A stretch of 64,000 nt of DNA, taken from the NCBI GenBank assembly GCA_963746775.1, contig CAVVCK010000002.1, positions 11,571 through 75,570 on the forward strand, given 5' to 3'. The DNA comes from an uncultured bacterium. Its GTDB lineage: Bacteria; Patescibacteriota; JABMPQ01; CAVVCK01. Both the position numbers and the translations under genes were made by a program. The notes beneath the pieces are model-generated. The model was not told the origin of the DNA and searched no databases. It saw only the letters and a program-made list of their open reading frames with translations. Positions 6,379 through 38,760 of the stretch are shown piece after piece. Each line of letters opens with the position of its first letter. Within the stretch, counting starts at the first letter, position 1.

Positions 6379-7860
6379 ATGGAAAAAATTCGTACTCGAT
6401 TTGCACCATCTCCGACTGGTGAACCACATATAGGCAATATCAGATCAGCTCTTTTTGCTTGGCTTTTTGCTCGCCATAATGGAGGCAAATTTATATTGCG
6501 TATAGAGGATACTGACAGAGGAAGATTTGTTGAAGGTAGTGTGAATAAAATAAAAGAATGCTTAGAGTTTTTAGGTATGGATTATGATGAAGGAATAGAT
6601 AAAGGTGGTGAATATGGCCCATACTTACAATCAGAAAGGCTAGAAATATATAAGAAATATGTTCAGAAATTAGTTGATGAAGGAAAAGCATATTATTGTT
6701 TTTGTAGTTCCGAAAGATTAAATGAGATGAGAGAAGAACAAAAATCCAAGAATTTAGCTCCAAAATATGATAGAAAATGTTTAAATTTATCAAAGGAAGA
6801 AATTAAAGAGAAATTAGATAATAAAGAACCATATGTTATTAGATTTAAGATTCCTGATGGATATACAGAATTTAAGGATATAATTAGAGGTAGGATTTTT
6901 ATAAAAAATGAAGTATTAGATGATCAAATTATTTTAAAGTCTGATGGATTTCCCACGTATCATTTAGCAGTGGTAGTGGATGATCATTTAATGAAAATAT
7001 CTCATGTTATTCGAGCTGAAGAATGGTTGCCATCTACTCCTAAACATTTATTATTATATAAAGCCTTTGGCTGGAAAGCGCCTCAATTTGCTCATTTACC
7101 AATGATTTTAGGTGATGATAAGAAAAAGTTGAGCAAAAGACATGGTTCAGTTGCTTTCTTGGATTATAAAAAACAAGGTTATTTACCTGAAGCTTTGATT
7201 AATTTTATGGTATTCTTAGGCTGGAATCCTGGAGGTGAAAGGGAAATTTATAGCCTGAGTGAATTAATAAAAGAATTTGATTTAAGTAAGATAAATAAGG
7301 CAGGAGCGATATTTAATATTGAAAAACTTAATAATATTAATGGGCATTATATTAGAGAAATGGAAATAAGCGAATTGGCTAAAAAATGTTTTCCTTATTT
7401 AGAAAATGAATACATAGAAAAAATTGGTAATAGTTTTAAAATAAAAGAAACAGGAGAAGTAATAAATTTAGAATATTTAGAAAAAATTGTATCTCTGGAG
7501 CAAGAAAGGATGAAAAAGTTATCAGAGATAGGGGATTTAACTCATTTTTTCTTTAAAAAAGAGCTTAATTATGATCCTAATTTATTAGTTTGGAAAAAAT
7601 CTTCTCAAGAAGAAACTTTAAAAAATTTAAAATTATTGAAGGAATTTTTAGAAAATTTTGATGATAATGACTGGAATAAAGATAAAATAGAAGAAAAAAC
7701 TATTGTCTGGCTTAAAAAAAATAATTATGGGATAGGGGATTTTCTATGGCCCATGAGAGTAGCTTTATCTGGTGAGAAAAATAGTCCTGGACCATTTGAA
7801 ATAGCCGATGTTTTAGGAAAAGAGAAAACATTATATAGGATTGAAAAAGCTATTATTTGA
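6379..7860 (+). CDS. gltX: Glutamyl-tRNA synthetase
   Basis: RFAPSPTGEPHIGNIRSALF (HIGH motif), KLSKRHG (KMSKS motif), and a typical GluRS anticodon-binding C-terminus. The annotated ORF start at 6346 is probably a spurious upstream extension. Confidence 0.9.
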   Translation: MEKIRTRFAPSPTGEPHIGNIRSALFAWLFARHNGGKFILRIEDTDRGRFVEGSVNKIKECLEFLGMDYDEGIDKGGEYGPYLQSERLEIYKKYVQKLVDEGKAYYCFCSSERLNEMREEQKSKNLAPKYDRKCLNLSKEEIKEKLDNKEPYVIRFKIPDGYTEFKDIIRGRIFIKNEVLDDQIILKSDGFPTYHLAVVVDDHLMKISHVIRAEEWLPSTPKHLLLYKAFGWKAPQFAHLPMILGDDKKKLSKRHGSVAFLDYKKQGYLPEALINFMVFLGWNPGGEREIYSLSELIKEFDLSKINKAGAIFNIEKLNNINGHYIREMEISELAKKCFPYLENEYIEKIGNSFKIKETGEVINLEYLEKIVSLEQERMKKLSEIGDLTHFFFKKELNYDPNLLVWKKSSQEETLKNLKLLKEFLENFDDNDWNKDKIEEKTIVWLKKNNYGIGDFLWPMRVALSGEKNSPGPFEIADVLGKEKTLYRIEKAII

Positions 7861-7908
7861 CGCAATATTCAAATTATGCTATAATGTAATTGAATAAAAT
7901 AAATATTT

Positions 7909-9150
7909 ATGAGTTTTATATTTAAAAATAGAAAAACAAAATATATATTTTTAGGTATTATATTACTGTTGGTTTTTGTACCAGCCTTTTTTATTTTAGC
8001 AGATAATTCTACTCAAGATTTGAATAAAAAAGTAGATAATAAAAAGCAAGAAATTGAAAATTTGGATGATAGAATTAAAAATTTAGAAGATGAAATTGAA
8101 AATAAAAAAGCTGAAAAAGTTAATTTAGAAAATCAACTTAACATACTAGATAATGAAATTTCTAAAACAGAAACTGAGGTTGAGCGAACTGGTAAAAATA
8201 TTGAAAAAGTTAATTTAGAAATAGAAGAAATTAAGCAGGAAATTAAAGAGAAGAAGGCTGAAATTACTAAACAAAAAATTCTTTTATCAGGTTTGATTAG
8301 AGAAATAAATCAAAGTGATAGGGTAAGTTTTTTTGAAATACTTTTCTCATATAATTCATTTTCTGAGTTTTTGGATCAAGCTCAATATTTAGAATCATTA
8401 GAAAAAGAAGGAAAATTGATTTTAGATGAAATTAATAGAATAAAAGATGAACTAGAAAAACAACAGCAAGCGTTAGAAGAGAAAAAAGAAACTCTAACAA
8501 ATTTAAAAACAGAATTAGATAACGAAAAAAAGGTTTTAAATGAAGAAAAAGATGGTAAAGAAAATCTATTATCTGAGACCAATATGCAGGAGGATAAATT
8601 CCAGGATTTATTAGAACAAGCACGATTAGAACAAGAAACAGCAAATTCAGAGATAGCTCGCCTTCAAAGTGAAATTGAAAAAAAGATTAAAGAATCTCAA
8701 AATACTACAGATAATTGGGAAAGTTTAGGAGGTGCTGGTGAACTTGATTGGCCAGTGTATCCTGCTAGAGGTATTTCTGCTTATTTTATGGATCCTGCAT
8801 ATTATAATGCTTTTGGTATAAATCATTATGCTATAGATATACCAACTTCTCAAGGATCAGCAATCCATGCTCCAGCAGATGGCTATATGATAAAGTATAG
8901 AGACGCAGGGATGGGATATAGTTATATAGTTTTATATCATGGCGAGGGGATGACTACGGTTTATGGTCATGTAACAGGTTGTGCGCTTGCCGATGGTCAG
9001 CAGTTTAATCGTGGTGATGTAATAGGTTATTCTGGTGGCGCTCCTGGAACAAAAGGTGCTGGTTGGCTTACAACGGGTTCTCACTTGCACTTTGAAGTAA
9101 GAATAAATGGTAATCCAGTAGATCCACAAAAATATTTAGTATCAATATAA
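7909..9150 (+). CDS. M23-family peptidoglycan metalloendopeptidase with an N-terminal TM helix and long coiled coil (EnvC-like)
   Basis: Heptad-rich E/K/L region, then HYAIDIP...YGHVTG...GSHLHFEVRINGNPVDP (the M23 HxxxD / HxH motifs). Confidence 0.85.
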   Translation: MSFIFKNRKTKYIFLGIILLLVFVPAFFILADNSTQDLNKKVDNKKQEIENLDDRIKNLEDEIENKKAEKVNLENQLNILDNEISKTETEVERTGKNIEKVNLEIEEIKQEIKEKKAEITKQKILLSGLIREINQSDRVSFFEILFSYNSFSEFLDQAQYLESLEKEGKLILDEINRIKDELEKQQQALEEKKETLTNLKTELDNEKKVLNEEKDGKENLLSETNMQEDKFQDLLEQARLEQETANSEIARLQSEIEKKIKESQNTTDNWESLGGAGELDWPVYPARGISAYFMDPAYYNAFGINHYAIDIPTSQGSAIHAPADGYMIKYRDAGMGYSYIVLYHGEGMTTVYGHVTGCALADGQQFNRGDVIGYSGGAPGTKGAGWLTTGSHLHFEVRINGNPVDPQKYLVSI

Positions 9151-18035: not shown

Positions 18036-19217
18036 TTATTTTAGGGGGGAAATTTTTCTTAAATTTTGGACTATTTTTGGTAAAACTTTTAGTAGTTTAT
18101 TAATATCTTCTTCTGTGTTTTCTTTTCCTAATGTAAGTCTTAAACTCCCATGTGCTTCTGCTTGAGGTATTCCTAGAGCTAACAGCACATGAGAAGGTTT
18201 TAGGCTTCCTGAAGCACAAGCTGAACCAGTGGAAGCGTAGATACCTTCAAAATCTAGTCCCAACATAATACTCTCCCCTTCTATATTTTTAAATCTGAAA
18301 TTAGCATTACCGGGGAGTCTTTTTTCTCTGGAGCCATTTAGTGTTGTCAAAGGAATATTTTTTAAAACCTGATCAATTAACTTATCTCTTAATTCTTTAA
18401 TTTTTTCTACGTCTTTTTTATGCTCGTTAGTTTGCAATAATTCAATAGCTTTACCTAATCCTACAATAGAGGGAACATTTAGCGTTCCTGATCTTAAATT
18501 AAATTCTTGAGCTCCGCCATGATGAAGGGGCGTTATTTTTGTTCCTTTTCTGATAAATAATGCTCCTATCCCTTTAGGACCATAAAATTTATGAGCCGAA
18601 AGTGATAATAGATCTACACCCAAATTCTGGACATTACAATCTAGGTATCCTATAGCTTGTACAGCATCAGTATGAAAATATATTTTATTTTTTCTGGATT
18701 TATTAATGTTTTTTAATAAAGCACCTATTTCTTTAATGGGCTGGATGGTTCCTACTTCATTATTAGCATACATTATGGAAATTAAGATAGTATTTTCCTT
18801 AATATTATTCTGAATATCTTTAGTGTTCACAATTCCTTCTTTACCTACATTTAGATAAGTTGCTTCAATTCTACCTTTTCTTTCTAAATATTCTACGGTT
18901 TCCAACACACAATGATGCTCTATTTTAGAAGTAATAACGTGAGGTTTTTCTATTTCTGAATCTTCAACAATCCCTTTTATAGTGAGATTATTACTTTCAG
19001 TTGCTCCACTGGTAAATATTATTTCTTCTGGATCACAACCTAAGTATTTAGAGACAGCTTCTCGGGCATTGTCTACTGCTCTATTGGCTTCTTGTCCAAA
19101 AGAATGGATAGATGAAGCATTACCGTATTTTTCACTAAGATAAGGCTTCATAGCTTCAAATACCTTATAGTCTAGAGGTGTAGTAGCGGCATGATCTAAA
19201 TATGTAAAATTATTCAT
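18036..19217 (-). CDS. iscS: Cysteine desulfurase (IscS/NifS). The start is more likely the Met at 19217 than the ORF-track start at 19250, which runs into a repeat element
   Basis: YLDHAATTPLD; PLP-binding SAHKFYGPKGIGALFIRKG; active-site-loop Cys in GSACASGSLKPSHVL. Confidence 0.9.
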   Translation of the reverse strand: MNNFTYLDHAATTPLDYKVFEAMKPYLSEKYGNASSIHSFGQEANRAVDNAREAVSKYLGCDPEEIIFTSGATESNNLTIKGIVEDSEIEKPHVITSKIEHHCVLETVEYLERKGRIEATYLNVGKEGIVNTKDIQNNIKENTILISIMYANNEVGTIQPIKEIGALLKNINKSRKNKIYFHTDAVQAIGYLDCNVQNLGVDLLSLSAHKFYGPKGIGALFIRKGTKITPLHHGGAQEFNLRSGTLNVPSIVGLGKAIELLQTNEHKKDVEKIKELRDKLIDQVLKNIPLTTLNGSREKRLPGNANFRFKNIEGESIMLGLDFEGIYASTGSACASGSLKPSHVLLALGIPQAEAHGSLRLTLGKENTEEDINKLLKVLPKIVQNLRKISPLK

Positions 19218-19245
19218 TATTTTGTCTATATTTATATATTCACAT

Positions 19246-19322
19246 CGCATAGTGGCTGCTGGCCCTCCAGGCTAGCCAATGAAGAATATTGGATAGCCTT
19301 GGGGGCCGTCTGCTACGCGGGG
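19246..19322. repeat. REP-like GC-rich structured repeat, copy A
   Basis: CGCATAGTGGCTG...CTACGCGG terminal inverted repeat enclosing a 10/11-bp inner stem (GGCTAGCCAAT...ATTGGATAGCC). It shares both ends, the CCCT-CCAG block and GGGGG-C-GTC with copy B. Confidence 0.5.
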
Positions 19323-19327
19323 AATTG

Positions 19328-19537
19328 TTATTTTTTGAACTTTTCCAAAACTTCCTTCAAATTACCCTGACATTTGGTACAATTTTGTTTTAAAAGACTT
19401 TCATATTCTTCAATACTCAATAATACGCCAACAGGCTTAGAATAGCGCATAATGATATACCTATCCCCTTTTTGTATATCAGATATAAGCGATTTAGTTT
19501 TTACTTGCAATTCTTGCTGATTGGTATACTTTTCCAT
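19328..19537 (-). CDS. Phd/YefM-family antitoxin-like protein with no adjacent toxin gene
   Basis: YTNQQELQVKTKSLISDIQKGDRYIIMRYSKPVGVLLSIEEYESLLK fits the Phd/YefM fold signature (...P..ITR.G...VL.S.EEYESL). A C-terminal CxxC follows. Confidence 0.55.
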   Translation of the reverse strand: MEKYTNQQELQVKTKSLISDIQKGDRYIIMRYSKPVGVLLSIEEYESLLKQNCTKCQGNLKEVLEKFKK

Positions 19538-19583
19538 AATTAAATGTTATATTACAATTAGTATAACTTTATATATAACTTTG

Positions 19584-19933
19584 TCAAATAATTCTATCAA
19601 TTTTTATAATTGATTCATCATCTAACTCGTAATTCTGCCAAGAAGTATATTTGTATTTTTTGGGATTATCAACTAAGCTATGTTTTAAAAAATTTCCATT
19701 GGTATAATTCCCCTTTTCTTCTAGATCTTTATTATTGCGAATTACGTGGTCGTAAAAACGGGGCTGCCATATTTTTTGTTATTTAACATTTTAGCAAGAG
19801 ATTTTAATATTAGTTCCCGGTTCCATTTTTTGATTTTATTATTATTGTTTATGTTTTTAATCCATTTTAAATATTCAGGTGATTCATTCGATATCGCGTA
19901 GTGGCTGGATCCCTGTCCAGCTTGTCTGGACAC
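19584..19933 (-). pseudogene. Remnant of a REP-associated tyrosine transposase (RAYT / IS200-like Y1 transposase, COG1943): C-terminal part only, frameshifted in a T6 run near 19772-19777
   Basis: The joined reading ...NKIKKWNRELILKSLAKMLNNKK|IWQPRFYDHVIRNNKDLEEKGNYTNGNFLKHSLVDNPKKY... matches the RAYT C-terminal signature (E. coli RayT: IWQPRFWEHAIRN...YIYINPVKHG). No HuH motif is present upstream. Confidence 0.5.
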
Positions 19934-19962
19934 CGGACGGACGGGGGTCTGTCAACTACGCG
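19895..19962. repeat. REP-like GC-rich structured repeat, copy B; overlaps the 5' end of the RAYT remnant
   Basis: CGCGTAGT...ACTACGCG 8-bp terminal stem and an inner hairpin GCTGGA-tccctg-TCCAGC. Confidence 0.5.
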
Positions 19963-19993
19963 AAAAAAATATTATTCTTTTTATGTAATAATA

Positions 19994-20641
19994 TCAATCT
20001 TTTATGCTTGCTCCAGCCGTATATCCCTTACTTTCCGCTTCTTCCTTGGAACTAAAACAAACTTTATTTTCTTCTTTTATGTTCTTGGCAGTACCTGAAT
20101 CTGGTAAATGGTATTTATCACTATTTTTACTGCCTACATACTTACAATTTTCAGCGCTATCTGATTCTGTACTTTCTTCTGAACCTGAAATAGATTTTTC
20201 AGAACTCGTAGTGCTATTTGTAGTTACTAAAGTATAACCTTGCTCCTCTGCTTCTTCCTGCGAGTCAAACCACATCATATTATCACTTGCTATATTCCCT
20301 ACTTCTTTACTATTAAAAGGATAAAATTTGTTATTTTCAATATTACCCACAAAAACTCCTTCATTGTTTATTTCTTTCGAAACATTTTCTTTATTATCAT
20401 TTTCATCGCTGCTTACTTTTGTATCTTCTGTTTTTACTTCCTCTTTACTATCTACTTTAGCTTCAGTATCTTTATTTTCAAAAATATTACTTTCATCTAT
20501 TTCTATAGGTTCAGATTTTGATACTATAGATAATCTTCCAGCAGCGAAACTAATGGCGCAAACTAAAATAAATCCTATTGTTAAAATAATCTTATCTTGA
20601 TGATCTTTAAAAAATTCTTTTATATTTTCTATTCTTGACAT
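19994..20641 (-). CDS. Membrane-anchored acidic protein with two about-35-aa tandem repeats (aromatic-His...Cys...F.S.EEAE..GYT)
   Basis: N-terminal TM helix, then an E/D/K/S-rich region. Repeats: KFYPFNSKEVGNIASDNMMWFDSQEEAEEQGYT and KYHLPDSGTAKNIKEENKVCFSSKEEAESKGYT. Confidence 0.45.
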   Translation of the reverse strand: MSRIENIKEFFKDHQDKIILTIGFILVCAISFAAGRLSIVSKSEPIEIDESNIFENKDTEAKVDSKEEVKTEDTKVSSDENDNKENVSKEINNEGVFVGNIENNKFYPFNSKEVGNIASDNMMWFDSQEEAEEQGYTLVTTNSTTSSEKSISGSEESTESDSAENCKYVGSKNSDKYHLPDSGTAKNIKEENKVCFSSKEEAESKGYTAGASIKD

Positions 20642-31811: not shown

Positions 31812-34745
31812 TTATTTTAATTTTTTATAGACTTTCTCAAACATTTTCTCTTTAACAAACTTTCCAAACTCTGCATTTTCTACAATTTTTTTGTAAATAT
31901 CAAAATTGGATTCAACCATAGTATGCAATTGATCCTCAAAGATATGTGCGAAAACAAGCTTGAGTGCGTCTTTGGTGTTTGTTTTAGCGCTTTGGCTCAA
32001 TGTTTCATTCCCAGATAATCTTGTTTGTAATTCGGCAAAAAACACCTTGTCGCCTTCGGTAAAGTCGGTGCCAAATCGCTCGTTCACCTCATTAATTATG
32101 CGCGACAAAAATTCTTTTTCTTCGCCTGCACCTTTTCCTGTTCCCAATCCTTCAATCGGTTTCAATTCACCGGTCTTTTTTTCGAGCTCAATGTTTCCAC
32201 TGGAAATTTGCTGGATGCGATAAGTGTCCATATTCACATTGTCGGTAATTTCCACTGGCAATCTTTCTTTTTCGGCAGGTAATTTACGCCCAAGCATCCG
32301 CAAAAATGCATATAACTTTTCCAAATTTACATCCTTAAACGAGACAATCTGCGACAAAAAAGCATACATGCGAACATAGTTTTTTAATTGATCGCGAAAA
32401 TCAATTTTCTCTTTTTTCTCGCGCTTCAAGTATTCTTCAACAATCGGATCCAAAAGTGGATGCAGTTTTTCTTGCGTTGCTCCGCGTTTGAAAAATACTT
32501 TGGCGAAAGTTTCAACATCATTTTTGGCAAAAATACCAAAATCAAGCAGATTGCGCTCCAAATCATAAAGCTTGTTTGGGTCGGTGGCTTTGGTCAAAAT
32601 AGCTTTGTCATAATACGGCTGAAACGCTTTTTGAATTTCTTCTTCATAATTGGCAAAATCCAAAACCATCGTGTCTTCTTTGCCTTTAGTAGTGCGGTTG
32701 AGCCGGCTCAAAGTTTGCACGGCCATTACGCCACCCAATTTTTTATCAACATACATTGTATGCAAGAGCGGCTGGTCGAATCCGGTTTGGAATTTATTTG
32801 CTACAATCAAAATTTTAAATTCCGGTAATTTGAAGGTGTCGGCGGTGAGCTTATCGCTTCGCAGTCCATTCATGCCGGCTTCGGTATATTCTTTTCCACC
32901 GTCAGTTACCGTGCCGGAAAACGCCACCAAGGTTTTGATCGGGTATTTATGCTCTTTAATATATTGGTCAAAAGCAAGTTTGTAGCGTACCGCATGCAAG
33001 CGTGAACGGGAAACAATCATCGCTTTAGCGTAGCCGTCAATTTTGCGCGTAGTGTGCGATAAATAATGCTCAATAATTAATTCTGTTTTTTTTCCAATAG
33101 CATGATCATGTAATTCCACATATCCCTTCAAAAGCGCGATGCCTTTTTTCTTTTCATATTGCGGATCTTCTTCGGTTTTTTTAATCAAATTAAAGTAAGT
33201 CTGGAAAGTGGTGTAATTTTTGAGCACATCTAAAATAAAACCTTCTTCAATTGCTTGTCGCATTGAATACAAGTGAAACGGCTCAAAAGTTCCATCGGCT
33301 TTTTGGGTGCCGAAAATTTGCATGGTTTTATCTTTTGGTGTGGCGGTAAAGGCAAAGAAGCTGATATTTTTCTGTCTGCCTCGGCTAGATAATTCAGACA
33401 AAATCGCATCTTCGCTCGTCAATTCTTCTTCGCTCTCATTTTCCGCTTCGGCTTCTTCCAACGACCCAAGCGCTTTTTTCAAACTCTTGGTACTCTCGCC
33501 CGATTGTGAAGAGTGTGCCTCGTCAATAATCACAGCAAATTTTTTGCCTCCTTGCTTTGCAAGCTCATCAACAATGTAGGGAAATTTATGCAAAGTGGAA
33601 ACAATGATTTTTTTGCCGGATTCCAGCGCTTCTTTAAGTTGTTTTGAATGTTCGTCAATCGCCGCAACTACACCCTCCACTTGCGCGAATTGCCTAACTT
33701 CATCGCGAAGCTGTTTATCAATTACGCGCCGATCGGAAATAACGATTGCTGTATCAAAAATTTTCTGATCATTGGCATCGTGTAAACTGGAAAGTTTGTG
33801 AGCAAGCCATGAAATTGTTTTTGTCTTTCCGCTTCCGGCGCTGTGCTGAATGAGATATTGCTGACCGGCTCCGTACTCTCGCGCATGAGCCACCATTTTG
33901 CGCAACGCGTCCAACTGATGATAGCGCGGAAAAATAAGCGTCTCTTTTTCTTTTTGATTACCTTCCTCGTCCGTTGTCTTTTCAATAGATACGAGCATAA
34001 ATTCGGCAATAATCTGAAGCAAGCTGTCTTTTTGCAAAACTTCTTCCCATAGATACGCGCTCTTGAACCCGCTCGAATTCACCGGATTGCCAGCGCCGTT
34101 TTCAAAACCTTTGTTAAACGGCAAAAAGAATGTGGATTTGCCAGCCAAATGCGTGGTCATATACACCAAGTCATTATCCACGGCGAAATGCACCAAACAG
34201 CGCTTGAAAGCAAACAAATCCTCACGCTGGTCGCGGTCATAGCGATATTGTTTGATTGCGTCCTGTACATTTTGTCCGGTCAAATAGTTTTTCAGCTCCA
34301 GCGTGGAAATCGGCAAACCGTTCAAGAAAATCACCGTATCCAGCGACTTGCCGTCTTTTTGGCTAAACTTCACCTGTCGCATTATAGAAAAAATATTATT
34401 TTGATGTAAAAGCGCGTGTTCCGGATTCAAAGTGCTCTCGGGCGCGAAATAAACAAGCTGAAAGCGCGAACCGTAATCGGCAAAACCTTTGCGAAATACA
34501 TCTAAAATCCCGCGCGATTCAATCTCGGTTTTAAGACGATAGACAAATTTTGATTTTACTTCTTCGCCGTGCTGTTCTTTGAGTTTCTCCCATTCTTTTG
34601 GCTGGGTGGCGTAGATAAATTCAAAAAGCATTTCCTCGTCCATGCAAGATTCGGCGTTATAATTTTTTGGCTCGCGCGCACGATAGCCGGAAGCGGTCAA
34701 AACCGTTTCAATATGCGCTTCAAATGATTTTTCTGATGTATCCAT
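31812..34745 (-). CDS. hsdR: Type I restriction enzyme, R (restriction/translocase) subunit
   Basis: N-terminal PD-(D/E)xK nuclease (DTVIFLNGLPISTLELKN); SF2 helicase motifs QHSAGSGKTKT and IIDEAHSS; typical HsdR C-terminal region. Confidence 0.95.
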   Translation of the reverse strand: MDTSEKSFEAHIETVLTASGYRAREPKNYNAESCMDEEMLFEFIYATQPKEWEKLKEQHGEEVKSKFVYRLKTEIESRGILDVFRKGFADYGSRFQLVYFAPESTLNPEHALLHQNNIFSIMRQVKFSQKDGKSLDTVIFLNGLPISTLELKNYLTGQNVQDAIKQYRYDRDQREDLFAFKRCLVHFAVDNDLVYMTTHLAGKSTFFLPFNKGFENGAGNPVNSSGFKSAYLWEEVLQKDSLLQIIAEFMLVSIEKTTDEEGNQKEKETLIFPRYHQLDALRKMVAHAREYGAGQQYLIQHSAGSGKTKTISWLAHKLSSLHDANDQKIFDTAIVISDRRVIDKQLRDEVRQFAQVEGVVAAIDEHSKQLKEALESGKKIIVSTLHKFPYIVDELAKQGGKKFAVIIDEAHSSQSGESTKSLKKALGSLEEAEAENESEEELTSEDAILSELSSRGRQKNISFFAFTATPKDKTMQIFGTQKADGTFEPFHLYSMRQAIEEGFILDVLKNYTTFQTYFNLIKKTEEDPQYEKKKGIALLKGYVELHDHAIGKKTELIIEHYLSHTTRKIDGYAKAMIVSRSRLHAVRYKLAFDQYIKEHKYPIKTLVAFSGTVTDGGKEYTEAGMNGLRSDKLTADTFKLPEFKILIVANKFQTGFDQPLLHTMYVDKKLGGVMAVQTLSRLNRTTKGKEDTMVLDFANYEEEIQKAFQPYYDKAILTKATDPNKLYDLERNLLDFGIFAKNDVETFAKVFFKRGATQEKLHPLLDPIVEEYLKREKKEKIDFRDQLKNYVRMYAFLSQIVSFKDVNLEKLYAFLRMLGRKLPAEKERLPVEITDNVNMDTYRIQQISSGNIELEKKTGELKPIEGLGTGKGAGEEKEFLSRIINEVNERFGTDFTEGDKVFFAELQTRLSGNETLSQSAKTNTKDALKLVFAHIFEDQLHTMVESNFDIYKKIVENAEFGKFVKEKMFEKVYKKLK

Positions 34746-34749
34746 AGTA

Positions 34750-35436
34750 TTAAGATTTTATAAGTTCAAATAATTCTTTTACATGTTTCCAATGAATTCC
34801 ACGAAAAATATTTGCGCTACCCGCCTGGTCAGATATTGAATTTGCAAGCACCGCGATTATTTTAGTCAAATCTCTTTTTAGTACAATTGGAGCGCCGGAG
34901 TATCCTCCAGCAACAGCGCCTGATATTTGTATTGTCTTTGGTAAAGTATCCTCCAATATCTCAGTCCCTACTAACCCTTCTGCATAAGTTGGTGTATGCC
35001 TTGCATTTAACAAAGCATTACCAAATGGAAATCCGGCATAAGCCACATCTTCACCCACGCTTATTGTTTCTTCACAAATATCAAGTCCAGATAAAACTTG
35101 TTGCATAAGGTAATTTTCATCTGCTTCGATATTCAAAATTGCCAGATCATGGATATAATCTAAAATTGATATGGTTGCTTTTTTATATTCAACGCCATTA
35201 CCACCGACTACCAACATACCTGAAACCTCAACGGGTGCGCCTATAATATCTTGGACAACATGAGCACATGTGATAAAAGCTTTTTTATCTTTCAGCCAAA
35301 ATCCCGTTCCTTTGATTGTTAATTTTGGGGGCAAAAAATCATTAGTTTGTGGGTTAAACTGTGGTTTAATTATGCCAACAGTTCTTACGGCGCTACATAC
35401 ATAAGGTGCATTGTTTGTTGTTTGGTTCGCTGTCAT
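34750..35436 (-). CDS. Cytoplasmic trypsin-like (S1/Trypsin_2-type) serine protease encoded inside the hsdM-hsdS-X-hsdR operon
   Basis: Catalytic triad candidates: His in FITCAHVV, Asp in HDLAILN, Ser in GGYSGAPIV (GxSGxP). It has no signal peptide and no PDZ domain. It sits 10 nt downstream of hsdS and 4 nt upstream of hsdR. Confidence 0.75.
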   Translation of the reverse strand: MTANQTTNNAPYVCSAVRTVGIIKPQFNPQTNDFLPPKLTIKGTGFWLKDKKAFITCAHVVQDIIGAPVEVSGMLVVGGNGVEYKKATISILDYIHDLAILNIEADENYLMQQVLSGLDICEETISVGEDVAYAGFPFGNALLNARHTPTYAEGLVGTEILEDTLPKTIQISGAVAGGYSGAPIVLKRDLTKIIAVLANSISDQAGSANIFRGIHWKHVKELFELIKS

Positions 35437-35446
35437 ATTATTTTAA

Positions 35447-36727
35447 TTAAATTTTAATTTTACCAGTCACGGCATTAGTAATAAGAGCTTGGCGATATTC
35501 TTGCAGTTTTTCAATTTGCATTTCCACCTTTTTCATCATCTCATTAATCTTCGCCGTCTCACGGTCTATATAATCAATAATTTTTTGCTGTTCCTCTCTT
35601 GATGGATACGCAACCTGCAAAGTTTTTATAAACTCCCATTCGGCACGGGGCATTTTTGCGCCCTGTGTTGAAGAATCAATATAATTTATGAAATCAGCGG
35701 TCAATATCCTATGAAGTAAAAACTTATTTATTAAAAATTTGTTTGTTCTAAAAACAAGCGCTTCGCCGACACACAAGCCATCTCGTTCAGTAATCATAGC
35801 TTTAGCAAGATATGGTCTCAATTTACCGAACAAAACATCTCCGGCAATAAATTTTTTTAGATCTCCTTCTGGGGATTTTTGATTTTCCGGTGATACAAAT
35901 TTTCCAGACCAGCTCTCTATATTTTCCAAAGCAATAATAAGATCGCTTTTGTCGTCATCGGTTGCTTTATCTACAACATTTTTTAAAAGGTAGTTTAATC
36001 GCTTCACTTTCCACCCTTCAGGAATATCTCCTAGCCAATCAATGCCGGAAGGTTTCATTTTTGCTTTTGTATCAATGCCTTTGGTCACGGCGTGCGTAAT
36101 CAGTGCTTGGCGCTTTTCTTTAAGCAAATCAATCATCTTTTGCTTTTTCGCCACCATCTCATCAATTTTCGCCGTCTCTCGGTCGAGAAAATCAGCGATA
36201 GATTTTTGCACCGTTTTTTCCGGGAAAGGAAAAATAATTTGTTTTAATTTTGGCGGTCTAATCTCAAAAATAGTTGTACCGACTGAAATAGCATTTAAAT
36301 AATCTTTCAGGATTTTTAAAGTATAAAATAAATATTTTGTGAATATTTTTTCATTTACTTTAATACCGGCAATACCTTGTTTTGTTGTGAGTGGAATATT
36401 CGCTATTCCAACTTCACCTATTGTTGCTCCAAAAGAGATAATAATATCGCCAACATCCCAAATCTTCGCGTTTGATTCCTTATAACCCTTTTCGCTAATT
36501 TTTTCTTTAGTCTCGTTTATTTCATCTTTAATATCGTCGACAACCAGCCAATTTATATCGCCGTCAAAATTATCAGCCTCACTACGAGAAGGCGTTCCAC
36601 CATCTTCAATAGCCCAGCTCAAATATTTCAACTTGCATTCTTCCCATCCCGCAGGAATATCTCCCAGCCAGTCAATGCCGGATGGTTTATATTTGGAATA
36701 TGTTTTGTATTTTGTCGCGGTAATCAT
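35447..36727 (-). CDS. hsdS: Type I restriction enzyme, S (specificity) subunit with two target-recognition domains
   Basis: Conserved central spacer ...LDRETAKIDEMVAKKQKMIDLLKEKRQALITHAVTKGI and C-terminal repeat LQEYRQALITNAVTGKIKI; a duplicated KPSGIDWLGDIP TRD N-cap. Confidence 0.9.
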   Translation of the reverse strand: MITATKYKTYSKYKPSGIDWLGDIPAGWEECKLKYLSWAIEDGGTPSRSEADNFDGDINWLVVDDIKDEINETKEKISEKGYKESNAKIWDVGDIIISFGATIGEVGIANIPLTTKQGIAGIKVNEKIFTKYLFYTLKILKDYLNAISVGTTIFEIRPPKLKQIIFPFPEKTVQKSIADFLDRETAKIDEMVAKKQKMIDLLKEKRQALITHAVTKGIDTKAKMKPSGIDWLGDIPEGWKVKRLNYLLKNVVDKATDDDKSDLIIALENIESWSGKFVSPENQKSPEGDLKKFIAGDVLFGKLRPYLAKAMITERDGLCVGEALVFRTNKFLINKFLLHRILTADFINYIDSSTQGAKMPRAEWEFIKTLQVAYPSREEQQKIIDYIDRETAKINEMMKKVEMQIEKLQEYRQALITNAVTGKIKI

Positions 36728-36729
36728 AA

Positions 36730-38760
36730 TTAAATATCCGTTAGCATTTTGGCGATTTCATCTTCCAATTTTTTAATATCACCGCCAATTTCATCAAGAG
36801 GACGGAGCGGTTTGTATTCGTAAAAATAGCGGGTAAAGCTAATTTCATAACCCACCTTACCAATTTTGCCGTCTTTGTGATCGCAATATTTTTTATCATC
36901 GCTAATCCATGCGTCCGGAACATGAGGCAAAACTTCGCGCGTAAAATAAGTTTTAATATCCTCGCCGAGCGGGACATTTTCGTAATCGCGCAAATCTACA
37001 TCCGGTTCCGGTTTACCTTTTTTGTCGGTAATAACATCAGCTGTTTCATCGCGTTCGGAAAGTCCCTTGAGAATGGCTTTTTTGACCGGCGCGTCCAGTT
37101 TGAGATCAGCTTTTTTGAAAGTCGCTTCTAAAACTTCAACAAACTTGTCTTGATTTTTATAAAGTGTGTCACCAATGGTGGCAAGCGCTTTTTGAATAGA
37201 TATTTGGAGTGCAAAGCCGGCTTTTTCTTCTTCCAGTTTTTTGAGCGGATCGCGCTTTTTGCTTTTGGCAAGATTTTGAAAAGCGGATTCGGTTTTTAAT
37301 TTTTCTAAACGTTCGGCGCTGGCTTGAAAATTCAGTTTGAGCGGGCGTTCAATCGTGATTTTGCGATAACCGAAAAATTCATTCGGGAACACTTTGACGA
37401 TTTTGCTCTTTTCGCCATCCAAAGTAAGTTCGGTAATTTTTTGGATTTGCTCGTCAGAAATGACATTGCGTTTGTCTCCCAAGCTCTTGCGCATTTTTTC
37501 GTAGAGATCAGCTGCATTGATGAGTTTTACTTTGCCTTTGTGATGATCTTTTTTGCGATTGGTCAGGACCCAAATATAAGTATGAATGCCTGTGTTATAA
37601 AAAAGTTGGTTTGGCAGAGCAATGATTGTCTCCAGTAAATCATTCTCAATAATCCATCTGCGAATTTCGCTTTCACCGCTTCCCGCATCACCTGTAAAGA
37701 GCGGCGATCCGTTCATAACAATAGCGATACGGCTACCACCATTTTTAGGCTTCATTTTAGCAAGCATTGTTTGGAGGAAAAGCAACTGACCGTCGCTAAT
37801 GCGCGGAAGGCCAGCGCCAAATCGTCCTTGAAACCCAAGTTCTGCTTCTTTTTCTATTTCCTTTTGGTCTTTCTTCCATTCCTTGCCATAGGGCGGATTG
37901 GAAAGCATATAATCAAACGTTTGACCGAAGAGATGATCATGCGAAAGTGTAGAGCCGAATTTGATATTATCGGCGTTTTCGCCCTTGATAAGTAGGTCGG
38001 ATTTGGCAACGGCAAAAGTTTCTGGATTCACTTCTTGACCAAACATTTCCACTTGAGCCGTATCGTTTACGCTTTCCAAAATCCATTCTTTGGCTTCGGT
38101 AAGCATGCCGCCGCTTCCGCAAGCCGGATCATAAATGGTTTTGATAATGCGTTGTCTTTTTAAAATTTCCAAATCCGGAGAAAACAGAAGATTGACCATC
38201 AAACGAATAATTTCGCGGGGAGTAAAGTGTTCTCCTGGATTTTCGTTTGAGGCTTCGTTAAATTTACGAATCAATTCTTCAAAAACATAACCCATCGCCA
38301 AATTGCTTACACGATCAGGATGCATTTCGACTTCGCTAAATTGTTCTATAACTTGGTAGGTGAGATTCGCTTCTTCAAGCGCGTCAATTTGCGTGTTGAA
38401 TTTGAACTTATCAATTATTTCGCGCATGAGTGGACTATACGCGTTGATATACAGACGAAGGTTTTTGCCGATATTTTTCGGATCGTCTAAAAGTTTTTTG
38501 AAATCATATTGCGAAGTATTATAAAAATTGTATCCGCTCGCTTTTTTCAAAATACCGTCCATGTCTTCCAGCTTGCCTTTGTATTTTTCATACTTCACCA
38601 AAACATCGGCTTTGGTATCTTCAAGCGCGGCATCAAGACGGCGCAAAACGGTTAGAGGCAAAATAACATCCGGATATTTTGCGCGCTTAAAGTCATCGCG
38701 TAAAAGATTTGCGATGCTCCAGATAAAATTGACGATTTGTTGGTGGTTATTTTGGTTCAT
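36730..38760 (-). CDS. hsdM: Type I restriction enzyme, M (N6-adenine methyltransferase) subunit, with an about-150-aa C-terminal extension
   Basis: HsdM_N domain; motif I DPACGSGGML; motif IV NPPYG. At 676 aa it is longer than typical HsdM (about 520 aa). Confidence 0.95.
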   Translation of the reverse strand: MNQNNHQQIVNFIWSIANLLRDDFKRAKYPDVILPLTVLRRLDAALEDTKADVLVKYEKYKGKLEDMDGILKKASGYNFYNTSQYDFKKLLDDPKNIGKNLRLYINAYSPLMREIIDKFKFNTQIDALEEANLTYQVIEQFSEVEMHPDRVSNLAMGYVFEELIRKFNEASNENPGEHFTPREIIRLMVNLLFSPDLEILKRQRIIKTIYDPACGSGGMLTEAKEWILESVNDTAQVEMFGQEVNPETFAVAKSDLLIKGENADNIKFGSTLSHDHLFGQTFDYMLSNPPYGKEWKKDQKEIEKEAELGFQGRFGAGLPRISDGQLLFLQTMLAKMKPKNGGSRIAIVMNGSPLFTGDAGSGESEIRRWIIENDLLETIIALPNQLFYNTGIHTYIWVLTNRKKDHHKGKVKLINAADLYEKMRKSLGDKRNVISDEQIQKITELTLDGEKSKIVKVFPNEFFGYRKITIERPLKLNFQASAERLEKLKTESAFQNLAKSKKRDPLKKLEEEKAGFALQISIQKALATIGDTLYKNQDKFVEVLEATFKKADLKLDAPVKKAILKGLSERDETADVITDKKGKPEPDVDLRDYENVPLGEDIKTYFTREVLPHVPDAWISDDKKYCDHKDGKIGKVGYEISFTRYFYEYKPLRPLDEIGGDIKKLEDEIAKMLTDI

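Follow-up and report, generated by a model that had tools for sequence, protein, structure and literature searches.

A probable decayed REPtron upstream of the phd-iscS-nifU operon in a Patescibacteria genome

The locus described here very probably represents a decayed "REPtron", a RAYT (TnpA-REP) gene with its own REP hairpins, located upstream of a resident phd-iscS-nifU operon. It is a known kind of element, consisting of REPs and a broken RAYT, and not a new one. The host is a Patescibacteria genome of the Parcubacteria type (CPR), and the window, meaning the whole 64,000-nt stretch of DNA that was analysed, has a GC content of 29.6%. The features of the locus, all on the minus strand, are as follows.

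19225..19324, minus strand: about 100 nt inserted between phd (stop) and iscS (start), recognised by alignment with relatives; contains element A
19246..19319 (19322), minus strand: element A, a diverged double-foot REP doublet forming one long hairpin
19328..19537, minus strand: Phd/YefM-fold gene, 69 aa (Pfam profile; orthologues in relatives)
19560..19587, minus strand: sigma-70-like promoter of phd-iscS-nifU (TTGACA, 16 nt, TATACT; 11/12 matches)
19584..19894, minus strand: C-terminal part of a RAYT (TnpA-REP) pseudogene (profile match, identity to P0121/L025, alignment with 4ER8)
19772..19777, minus strand: frameshift site, T6 on the plus strand and A6 on the coding strand (alignment to the intact sister gene, translations)
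19895..19962, minus strand: element B, a double-foot REP doublet, here a hybrid left by a deletion; its homologue is L025:514-581
19963..19993, minus strand: AT-rich leader from the ORF215 stop to B, at the left edge of the insertion of about 406 nt
about 19588-19993: insertion of about 406 nt relative to empty-site genomes, with the leader at its left edge

The hairpin elements A and B

The 5' ends of elements A and B have CGCRTAGTGGCTG in common, and their 3' ends CTACGCG. The 13-mer CGCRTAGTGGCTG matches the 64-kb window only at these two places, even when two mismatches are allowed (0.33 matches expected). Mean column identity between the elements is 76%, and local GC peaks at 58-66%, against 29.6% for the window as a whole. 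The first-pass annotation, which had described two homologous, GC-rich elements with common ends and strong hairpins, was right on these points. RNA folding of the plus strand gives -42.4 kcal/mol for A and -46.0 kcal/mol for B (z -4.9 and -7.4), and the minus strand gives -37.0 and -30.5 kcal/mol, respectively; as DNA, both fold into imperfect-palindrome hairpins with energies from -16 to -20 kcal/mol and z-scores of -3.4 to -4.0 (-3.4 to -5.5 at the widest).

The ends of these hairpins match the feet of REP elements. B has a CGCGTAG foot, containing the GT[AG]G of REPs, on both strands, and also a CTACGCG 3' foot (C[TC]AC) on both strands, making it a double-foot element; it is composed of two inverted REPs, each consisting of CGCGTAGT(T/G)G and then a short hairpin. 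The 5' foot of A is CGCGTAG when read on the minus strand and CGCATAG when read on the plus strand, the 3' feet being CTACGCG (plus) and CTATGCG (minus); its minus-strand feet thus read CGCGTAG...CTATGCG. Both elements lie within the distance of less than about 1 kb expected between a REP and its tnpA-REP gene, B being inside the RAYT remnant and A 265 nt downstream of the remnant's stop. The GTAG feet, the hairpins and the adjoining RAYT gene together support the identification of A and B as REP-type elements.

A scores 73.3 bits (E 2e-15) with a covariance model. Run with filters off, such a model detected no REP copies beyond A and B in the 64-kb window, which amounts to about 12% of the 547-kb contig, and none away from RAYT genes in 203 kb of related loci. 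Two visible copies, both at the RAYT locus, are a low number for REPs, which are characteristically "repetitive, dispersed", and this is a point against the reading as a REPtron. A public pattern scan with the query TCGCRTAGTGGCTGN{35,65}CTACGCG returned one match in GTDB genomes and eight in JGI metagenomes; this is weak evidence, since neither collection holds the source or sister contigs. Eight of the nine matches are on contigs of 57-70% GC with no comparable structure and were judged to be chance. The ninth (L006, 45% GC) is alike in architecture, and was dropped as its contig is non-coding, of low complexity and eukaryote-like. A scan for tRNA and tmRNA genes found none. Integron attC sites have the consensus RYYYAAC...GTTRRRY; the feet of A and B do not match it, and the GTAG and RAYT evidence made a reading as an attC or integron cassette unnecessary.

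The RAYT remnant and its intact relatives

The minus-strand remnant reads ...LAKMLNNKK / IWQPRFYDHVIRNNKDLEEKGNYTNGNFLKH...DRII* over two frames. It matches the NCBIfam profile NF047646 (REP_Tyr_transpos) with an E value of 4e-12 at profile positions 92-145 of 146, and its score of 46.2 bits is below the cut-off of 80 because only this part of the profile is covered. In a sister strain (L024/L025), an intact 248-aa RAYT, P0121, is encoded at the same locus; it scores 93.6 bits, relatives score 97-112.8 bits, and the match of the full-length proteins falls into two stretches parted by a REP linker. With P0121 the remnant shares 97% identity over 102 C-terminal residues (146-247), and with L025 it shares 98.4% at the nucleotide level. 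A word-indexed protein search with the repaired fragment found nothing, and an exhaustive HMMER search was required to find P0121. Among solved structures, the best match is E. coli TnpArep (PDB 4ER8, E 9e-22), while IS200-type transposases reach only about 6e-4. The suggestion that this fragment is the C-terminal part of a RAYT is thereby confirmed.

Comparison with the intact sister gene also bears out two finer points of the first-pass annotation, the missing HuH region and a frameshift in a T6 run. A deletion took away the N-terminal half of the gene (about 122 codons of the 248 in P0121) and the HuH motif with it. The T6 run at 19772-19777 is one base short of the sister gene, which has A7 on its coding strand, and the loss of one A from an A7 run frameshifted the remnant. 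The remnant stop, TGA, falls within the -35 box of the phd promoter.

The WQ/R motif for GTAG recognition, IWQPRFYDHVIRN, is intact in the remnant. In E. coli the WQ...R motif contacts GTAG through W94, Q95 and R104, and the catalytic tyrosine motif is YIxNNP (PMC6006769). Here the tyrosine motif is NYTNGNF in both the window and P0121, and YINNNP or YIHKNP in relatives; the tyrosine and the asparagine at +4 are invariant in the protein alignment. At the HuH position, distant relatives have HLH, HFH, HWH or HVH, and the intact proteins of the local clade (P0121 and P0272) have H-L-L. In P0125 and P0271 the HuH motif is intact. Since H-L-L replaces HuH in P0121, the catalytic competence of even the intact sister protein is doubtful.

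The sister strain also clarifies the nature of B. The gene order there is ORF~201, one REP (CGCGTAGTTGACGGACC...), the RAYT gene, the phd promoter and phd. The RAYT gene itself includes a REP doublet, each end of which has GTAG/CTAC feet; it is translated in frame and lies in the variable linker that separates the HuH motif from the WQ/Tyr motifs. In L025 this doublet is at 514-581 within an open gene at 148-894, and it is the homologue of B. On the minus strand B translates as RVVDRPPSVRCPDKLDRDPATTR, and its counterpart in P0121 is RVVDGPSSVQCLDKLERGPATTR. B thus does not flank the RAYT remnant but belongs to the RAYT gene, within which it is translated. The L024 and L025 contigs are unlikely to be chimeric, as the same structure was obtained from two samples.

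Similar arrangements are found beyond the sister strain. A RAYT copy with 74% identity is present at the same place in L026. In-frame internal REPs, all in open frames, occur in L025, L027, L028 and L032. L027, L028 and L032 belong to other genera and their proteins are 37-44% identical. L027 and L028 have doublets with CGCGTAG/CGCGTAA feet upstream of the gene as well as in frame within it (in L027 at about 7884-7970 in a gene at 7530-8225, and likewise in L028). L032 has at least four in-frame internal REPs, and its upstream REP is absent. The CGCGTAG foot recurs in the REPs of these distant relatives. The RAYT copies in other genera are syntenic, located between glmS and comEC.

The resident operon and the origin of the window allele

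Five lineages in which IscS is 80-85% identical (L011, L015/16, L017-20, L021/22 and L023) lack A, B and RAYT. At these empty sites the order is ORF~209, a spacer of 46-100 nt, and phd overlapping iscS, with no GC-rich element. The Phd-like gene is present in all five (77-88% identical), with the promoter and ORF~209 upstream and with a stop that overlaps the iscS start downstream (ATGA). Its retention where A, B and RAYT are missing shows it to be resident in the phd-iscS-nifU operon and conserved there, and not mobile cargo. The phd promoter is likewise conserved in L015, L011, L023, L025 and L026, including genomes without any insertion. The association of phd with iscS is confined to closer relatives, with IscS at least about 80% identical; it was considered as a wider Parcubacteria feature and rejected, as the 86-aa ORF upstream of iscS in L030 (IscS 65%) is unrelated. 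An inverted repeat, GTTATAyTA...TAATATAAC, is present at the phd promoter.

The 69-aa product resembles Phd/YefM type II antitoxins in its N-terminal fold signature, with a narrow pass on Pfam PhdYeFM_antitox PF02604 (31.3 bits, cut-off 29.8) and 23 bits on TIGR01552 (cut-off 20.8); its orthologues score 29.5-30.2 bits on the antitoxin profile. It had been described as Phd/YefM-like and without a toxin, and both observations stand: there is no toxin gene beside it in the window. Unlike such antitoxins, it has a partner toxin in none of seven lineages, is translationally coupled to iscS, has a conserved CxxC motif in its C-terminal part in place of a recognisable toxin-binding tail, and behaves as a conserved core gene. 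Related genomes had been proposed as a place to look for an intact RAYT and a toxin gene at this locus; the former was found (L024/L025 and L026), but no toxin-sized ORF occurs at the locus across the seven lineages. The "orphan antitoxin" is thus not to be taken as a toxin-antitoxin relic.

These comparisons show how the window allele arose. The sister strain's upstream REP and its internal doublet are direct repeats with CGCGTAGTTGACGGACC in common. The 19 nt directly 5' of B, which are the last 19 nt of the leader at 19963..19993, correspond to the conserved flank of the RAYT unit's upstream REP, matching the sister sequence at 18/19 positions (0/5000 shuffles as good), while the sequence 3' of the common CGCGTAGTTGACGGACC in B follows the internal copy. 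Alignment of the two alleles thus shows a 434-bp deletion, running from the upstream REP to the internal doublet, that removed the RAYT promoter and the HuH half; the 5' edge of the remnant is now formed by B, a hybrid of the two REPs. The mechanism may have been recombination of the repeats, RecA-type or through slippage, or else cleavage by RAYT at the two feet.

Element A has a different history. Two alignments of the window with empty-site relatives place separate insertions on either side of phd, and A and B are thus two separate arrivals. The insertion of about 100 nt that holds A, a second, diverged REP doublet, is exactly at the former phd/iscS overlap; it cost phd six C-terminal codons and the overlap with iscS, and uncoupled the two genes. 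None of the seven related lineages has A at its phd-iscS junction. The sister strain, with an intact RAYT and no A, is one of them, and in L025 an unrelated 80-nt AT-rich spacer occupies the junction. A is only about 76% identical to B, and so is not a recent copy of it; its source copy is unseen. It may be that A was placed by RAYT-type single-strand cleavage and joining at GTAG feet, with an enzyme encoded either here before decay or elsewhere in the genome. Element A would now play only a passive part, contributing to the phd-iscS transcript a stable hairpin that folds at -37 kcal/mol in sense RNA. The idea that A was copied from the RAYT-internal site together with its flanks was rejected, the similarity of the flanks being insignificant (826, 438 and 276 of 2000 shuffles equal it).

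Several other explanations were considered for the locus as a whole. The first-pass annotation proposed that A and B bracket a single mobile module that carried a toxin-antitoxin pair; on this view the module lost its toxin and its HuH half and retained the antitoxin, possibly for anti-addiction. A and B are indeed direct homologues on either side of phd and the RAYT remnant, and the ORF between them narrowly passes the antitoxin profile. However, B lies within the RAYT ORF, the sister strain combines an intact RAYT with no A, and five lineages without A, B or RAYT have the coupled phd gene and no toxin gene; neither the bracketing nor the cargo model survives these findings, and a composite module is highly improbable. 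Nearly as improbable is a locus-specific structured RNA (a riboregulator, attenuator or processing site) controlling iscS. The folds are strong (z -4.5 to -7.4), A is exactly between phd and iscS, and the plus strand folds better than the minus strand owing to G-U pairs. That better-folding strand, however, is antisense to every gene at the locus; in the sense orientation the hairpin lacks a following U-tract, B encodes protein where the RAYT allele is intact, Rfam gives no match at gathering threshold in the whole window, and a permissive Rfam scan of 19150-20050 gave only noise (E above 1). The riboregulator of iscS, named as the alternative in the first-pass annotation, is rejected in particular because A is missing from this junction in 7/7 related lineages. 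It is also highly improbable that an IS200/IS605-type insertion sequence, or a MITE derived from one, supplied A and B as its left and right subterminal hairpins, in which case they would not be REPs. A Y1 HuH transposase is present, and IS608 likewise has its hairpins in direct orientation on one strand, but the protein fits TnpA-REP far better (4ER8, and the NF047646 equivalog level passed by the intact copy), the hairpins have GTAG/CTAC feet, the interval between A and B holds a resident host gene and its promoter, and the glmS-comEC synteny of RAYT copies in other genera is not IS-like behaviour.

Unlikely, though a good deal less so, is an origin of A other than transposition, as the leftover of a local rearrangement or of a vanished second RAYT copy, or through homologous recombination with another strain. 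A shows neither a target-site duplication nor any flank homology that would point to a defined transposition mechanism, about 25 nt of unrelated AT-rich sequence accompany it within the insertion, the different 80-nt filler in the sister indicates that the site is unstable, and the RAYT remnant bears a signature of recent strain exchange. On the other hand, no RAYT coding similarity is detectable beside A. Such an origin also overlaps with the decayed REPtron, since A would still be a REP of the same family.

Compared with the sister strain, the RAYT remnant shows 98.4% identity and the flanking genes 77-87%, an excess that suggests recent exchange between strains. A more elaborate model could be built on it: the upstream REP and in-frame doublet found in L025, L026, L027 and L028 might constitute a built-in device for cis self-excision of the HuH half, a self-limiting off-switch of which the window would be the excised state, with the 98.4% identity marking ongoing movement of the module between strains into one site. 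This is improbable.

Relation to known REP systems

As a decayed REPtron, the locus is closest to TnpA-REP subclass 2.4, of which "double-foot" REPs (GTAG...CTAC) and in-frame REPs inside tnpA-REP are hallmarks (Quentin et al. 2018, PMC6006769). The subclass corresponds to Bertels group 4, is known mainly from Cyanobacteria and Bacteroidetes "and various phyla", and has the signature NH[IFV]H / WQ / YIxNNP (PMC6006769). The similarities include long double-foot REPs (5' GT[AG]G, 3' C[TC]AC), a gene flanked by REPs, the WQ motif, a Y motif that approaches YIxNNP (relatives have YINNNP and YIHKNP), and the absence of a C-terminal extension domain. The differences are the Patescibacteria/Parcubacteria host, a HuH context of PCHxH or PDHxH (C or D, not N, before HuH), a CGxxCxC motif ahead of the REP linker in this clade, H-L-L in place of HuH in the local clade, and the state of the window copy as a 5'-deleted, frameshifted pseudogene. 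Assignment to subclass 2.4 would be by common hallmark features; the WQ and Y motifs fit, and the HuH context does not.

Read in this way, the annotation of the locus becomes clearer: the GC-rich hairpins are REPs, one of which is coding sequence in the intact allele, and the RAYT fragment is a pseudogene that arose by a REP-to-REP deletion. The subclass 2.4 architecture of a REP inside its own transposase gene now extends to Patescibacteria. Among these ultra-small CPR genomes, one site can be seen empty, with an intact REPtron and with a deleted one, a natural series. The locus also shows directly that REPs arranged as direct repeats can delete the catalytic half of their own transposase.

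The locus can also be compared with the REP/BIME elements of E. coli and their RayT (YafM, TnpArep; 4ER8), and with Pseudomonas REPINs. Common to all of these are GTAG at the foot of the hairpin, inverted REP doublets as the unit and a single RAYT gene flanked by its own REPs, and E. coli TnpArep has the same conserved IWQPRF(W/Y)(E/D)H.IRN motif contacting GTAG. Whereas the E. coli and Pseudomonas elements are dispersed in hundreds of copies, two copies are seen here in 64 kb, both at the RAYT locus, and whereas the REPs of E. coli are extragenic, one doublet here is inside the transposase ORF.

Two GC-rich elements and a RAYT fragment beside iscS

All genes at the locus lie on the minus strand, and the features are as follows.

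Features of the iscS locus in the window
19246-19319, element A, GC-rich hairpin
19328-19537, minus strand, Phd/YefM-like ORF of 69 aa (phd)
19540-19587, phd promoter region
19895-19962, element B, GC-rich hairpin
19994-20641, minus strand, ORF215
Minus strand, frameshifted RAYT ORF fragment, reading ...ILKSLAKMLNNKK / IWQPRFYDHVIRNNKDLEEKGNYTNGNFLKH...DRII-stop
Minus strand, iscS and nifU

In a window of 29.6% GC, no non-coding GC peaks near iscS are sharper than elements A and B. The two have the terminal sequences CGCRTAGTGGCTG and CTACGCG in common, one at each end, they are the sole matches to the shared end in 64 kb with two mismatches tolerated, and their column identity over the whole length is 76%, which confirms the homology claimed in the first-pass annotation. 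The strong hairpins it described are likewise borne out, as both elements fold far above shuffled controls, as RNA and as single-stranded DNA. Neither has a match in Rfam or with ARAGORN. A covariance model was built from A, B and the internal element of an intact relative (L025, described below). With filters off, the model detects A and B only in the whole window, which is ~12% of the 547-kb source contig, and over 203 kb of related loci it detects copies at RAYT genes only.

The fragment that was taken for a RAYT C-terminus matches NCBIfam REP_Tyr_transpos at profile positions 92-145 of 146 (E 4e-12), and tblastn finds no further RAYT-like sequence in the window. It has no Pfam match because Pfam Y1_Tnp covers the N-terminal half only.

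Empty sites, an intact allele and the state of the window

The closest IscS homologues have source names of Patescibacteria or Parcubacteria-group bacteria. The same locus was fetched via IscS from five lineages (L011-14, L015/16, L017-20, L021/22 and L023; IscS 80-85% identical), which have in common the gene order pyrG, rpmA (opposite strand), ORF~209, a 75-aa Phd-like gene, iscS and nifU. GC-rich elements and RAYT sequence are absent from the locus in all five. Relative to these, the window contains two separate insertions. An insertion of ~100 nt (19225-19324) holds A and sits exactly on the phd/iscS overlap (alignment A2), and one of ~406 nt (about 19588-19993), which follows the ORF215 stop and precedes the phd promoter, holds B and the RAYT fragment (alignment A3). 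In the lineage of L011 and L013, the ORF~209/phd spacer instead contains two unrelated small ORFs on the opposite strand, without a Pfam family:

L011:8933-9637, small ORFs of 101 aa and 95 aa
L013:2595-3260, small ORFs of 101 aa and 82 aa

Both the ORF~209/phd and the phd/iscS junctions appear to be insertion hotspots.

An exhaustive HMMER search with the repaired window fragment as query found P0121, a 248-aa RAYT whose residues 146-247 are 97% identical to the fragment, on contigs from two JGI samples (L024 and L025). In related genomes, an intact RAYT thus sits at the corresponding position, flanked by ORF201 and the phd promoter; L026 has a 74%-identical copy, P0272, in the same place. 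An unrelated 80-nt AT-rich filler is found at the phd/iscS junction of the sister strain L025.

L025:148-894, intact RAYT P0121
L025:514-581, internal REP element of 68 nt within the ORF, homologue of B
L026:268-1020, intact RAYT P0272

In the intact unit, one REP lies ~70 nt upstream of the start codon (CGCGTAGTTGACGGACCtctgGTCCGT in L025, CGCGTAGTTGGCGGACccctGTCCGCC in L026). The internal element of L025 encodes RVVDGPSSVQCLDKLERGPATTR, which lies between the CGxxCxC and IWQxRFYDH motifs; as DNA, it forms an 8-bp terminal stem (CGCGTAGT/ACTACGCG) around two short REP hairpins, which makes it an inverted REP doublet whose two ends each have a GTAG foot. The dN/dS ratio between the P0121 and P0272 genes is 0.18 overall and rises to 0.52 in the REP linker, against 0.10-0.17 for the catalytic halves, and the protein is kept by purifying selection in these strains. 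This is so although both proteins have H-L-L at the HuH position. Their chemistry is perhaps altered, or they may serve as domesticated REP-binding proteins.

The RAYT of the window, by comparison, is dead, and B is a fossil. Of the 19 nt that abut B on its 5' side, 18 agree with the sequence flanking the upstream REP in the sister strain (0/5000 shuffles), and there is no match to the flank of that strain's internal REP; once CGCGTAGTTGAC is reached, the window tracks the internal copy. This flank match and the switch to the internal copy indicate that 434 bp between two directly repeated REPs were deleted. The deletion took away the HuH half of the RAYT gene along with its start codon and promoter, and B is the hybrid REP that remained. 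The frameshift reported in a T6 run is explained by an A7 run of the intact sister gene that has become A6 in the window (T6 on the plus strand, 19772-19777). The RAYT remnant (19584-19894) has 98.4% nucleotide identity to L025:582-894 (5 mismatches in 309 nt), whereas identity to L025 is 89.7% for B, 85.5% for pyrG, 86.7% for rpmA, 80.8% for ORF215, 77.3% for phd and 82.8% for iscS. In lineages otherwise 13-23% diverged, this contrast points to recent horizontal exchange or gene conversion of the RAYT segment alone.

Element A, only ~76% identical to B, is not a recent copy of it, and the divergence hints at source copies not yet seen. There is no target-site duplication around A and no significant similarity between its flanks and those of B, so the mechanism of its arrival is one that we infer. 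The sole demonstrated effect of the insertion is that phd has lost six codons and its ATGA coupling to iscS. A forms a stable RNA hairpin (-37 kcal/mol in the sense orientation) that is new to the phd-iscS transcript, and no U-tract follows it. By analogy with E. coli REPs, it could shield the phd message upstream of it from 3' exonucleases or reduce read-through. A solitary CGCGTAGTGGATCTGCG occurs directly downstream of rpmA at L017:8395-8411 (also in L018, L019 and L020), in a lineage without RAYT, and may be either a chance match or the relic of a REP foot.

The Phd-like gene

The first-pass annotation proposed a decayed REP/RAYT module that once had a toxin-antitoxin pair as cargo, of which the antitoxin was possibly retained for anti-addiction. 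Its REP and RAYT parts are supported, but the toxin-antitoxin part is refuted: phd is resident in relatives that lack RAYT, and no toxin gene is found beside it in any lineage examined.

Orthologues of phd
L011:9781-10008
L015:9781-10008
L017:9468-9695
L021:3468-3695
L025:941-1147

In five lineages, the end of the gene falls within the iscS start (…ACAATGAGTAA) and its promoter, TTGACA-16-TATACT, begins at the ORF~209 stop codon. The protein has 77-88% identity across seven lineages, with a near-invariant N-terminal 50 residues and a conserved C-terminal CxxC motif (NCxxCxGNLK, also given as NCxKCxGNLK). Judged by this conservation, it is a resident gene under purifying selection and not cargo of the element. 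It is first in the iscS-nifU operon among close relatives (IscS at least ~80% identical); in L030 (IscS 65% identical), an unrelated 86-aa ORF takes its place. An inverted repeat, GTTATAyTA..TAATATAAC, lies between the phd -10 box and the start codon. It may be that the protein is a small autoregulator of Fe-S cluster genes rather than an antitoxin, possibly one that senses metal or Fe-S. In L023, the phd-like gene is frameshifted (L023:540-580, 59 aa), possibly through an error of assembly; the contig begins with Illumina adapter-like sequence (L023:1-35, GTGACTGGAGTTCAGACGTGTGCTCTTCCGATCT).

Family assignment and distant relatives

Full-length relatives score 93.6-112.8 bits on the NCBIfam REP-associated tyrosine transposase equivalog (cut-off 80), in two stretches with the REP-containing linker between them. 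Against E. coli TnpArep (PDB 4ER8), the family profile reaches E 9e-22, and against IS200-type transposases only ~6e-4. Distant members (P0125, P0271 and P0273) are 37-44% identical and belong to other genera of ~40% GC. In three Patescibacteria lineages, the distant RAYT lies between glmS and comEC, and its stop overlaps the comEC start.

Distant RAYT loci
L027:7530-8225
L028:10001-10795
L032:6001-6903

Such a conserved position, with translation coupled to that of a competence gene, is unusual for a transposase.

In L027 and L028, REP doublets with CGCGTAG or CGCGTAA feet occur both inside the gene, in frame, and a short way upstream of its start. The L032 linker contains four or more REPs, and none is seen upstream of that gene. 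Exactly such a REP architecture is described for TnpA-REP subclass 2.4 (Quentin, Siguier, Chandler and Fichant 2018; PMC6006769). The sequences examined here fit this subclass in their WQ and YIxNNP-like motifs, although the position ahead of HuH, N in the subclass, holds C or D; they likely belong to it. The phenomenon is already known, and only the host group and this decayed instance are new.

Elsewhere in the window lies a further island, of ~40% GC in a genome of ~28% GC:

31812-38760, minus strand, type I restriction-modification island

It encodes HsdR, a trypsin-like peptidase, HsdS and HsdM, and was probably acquired horizontally.
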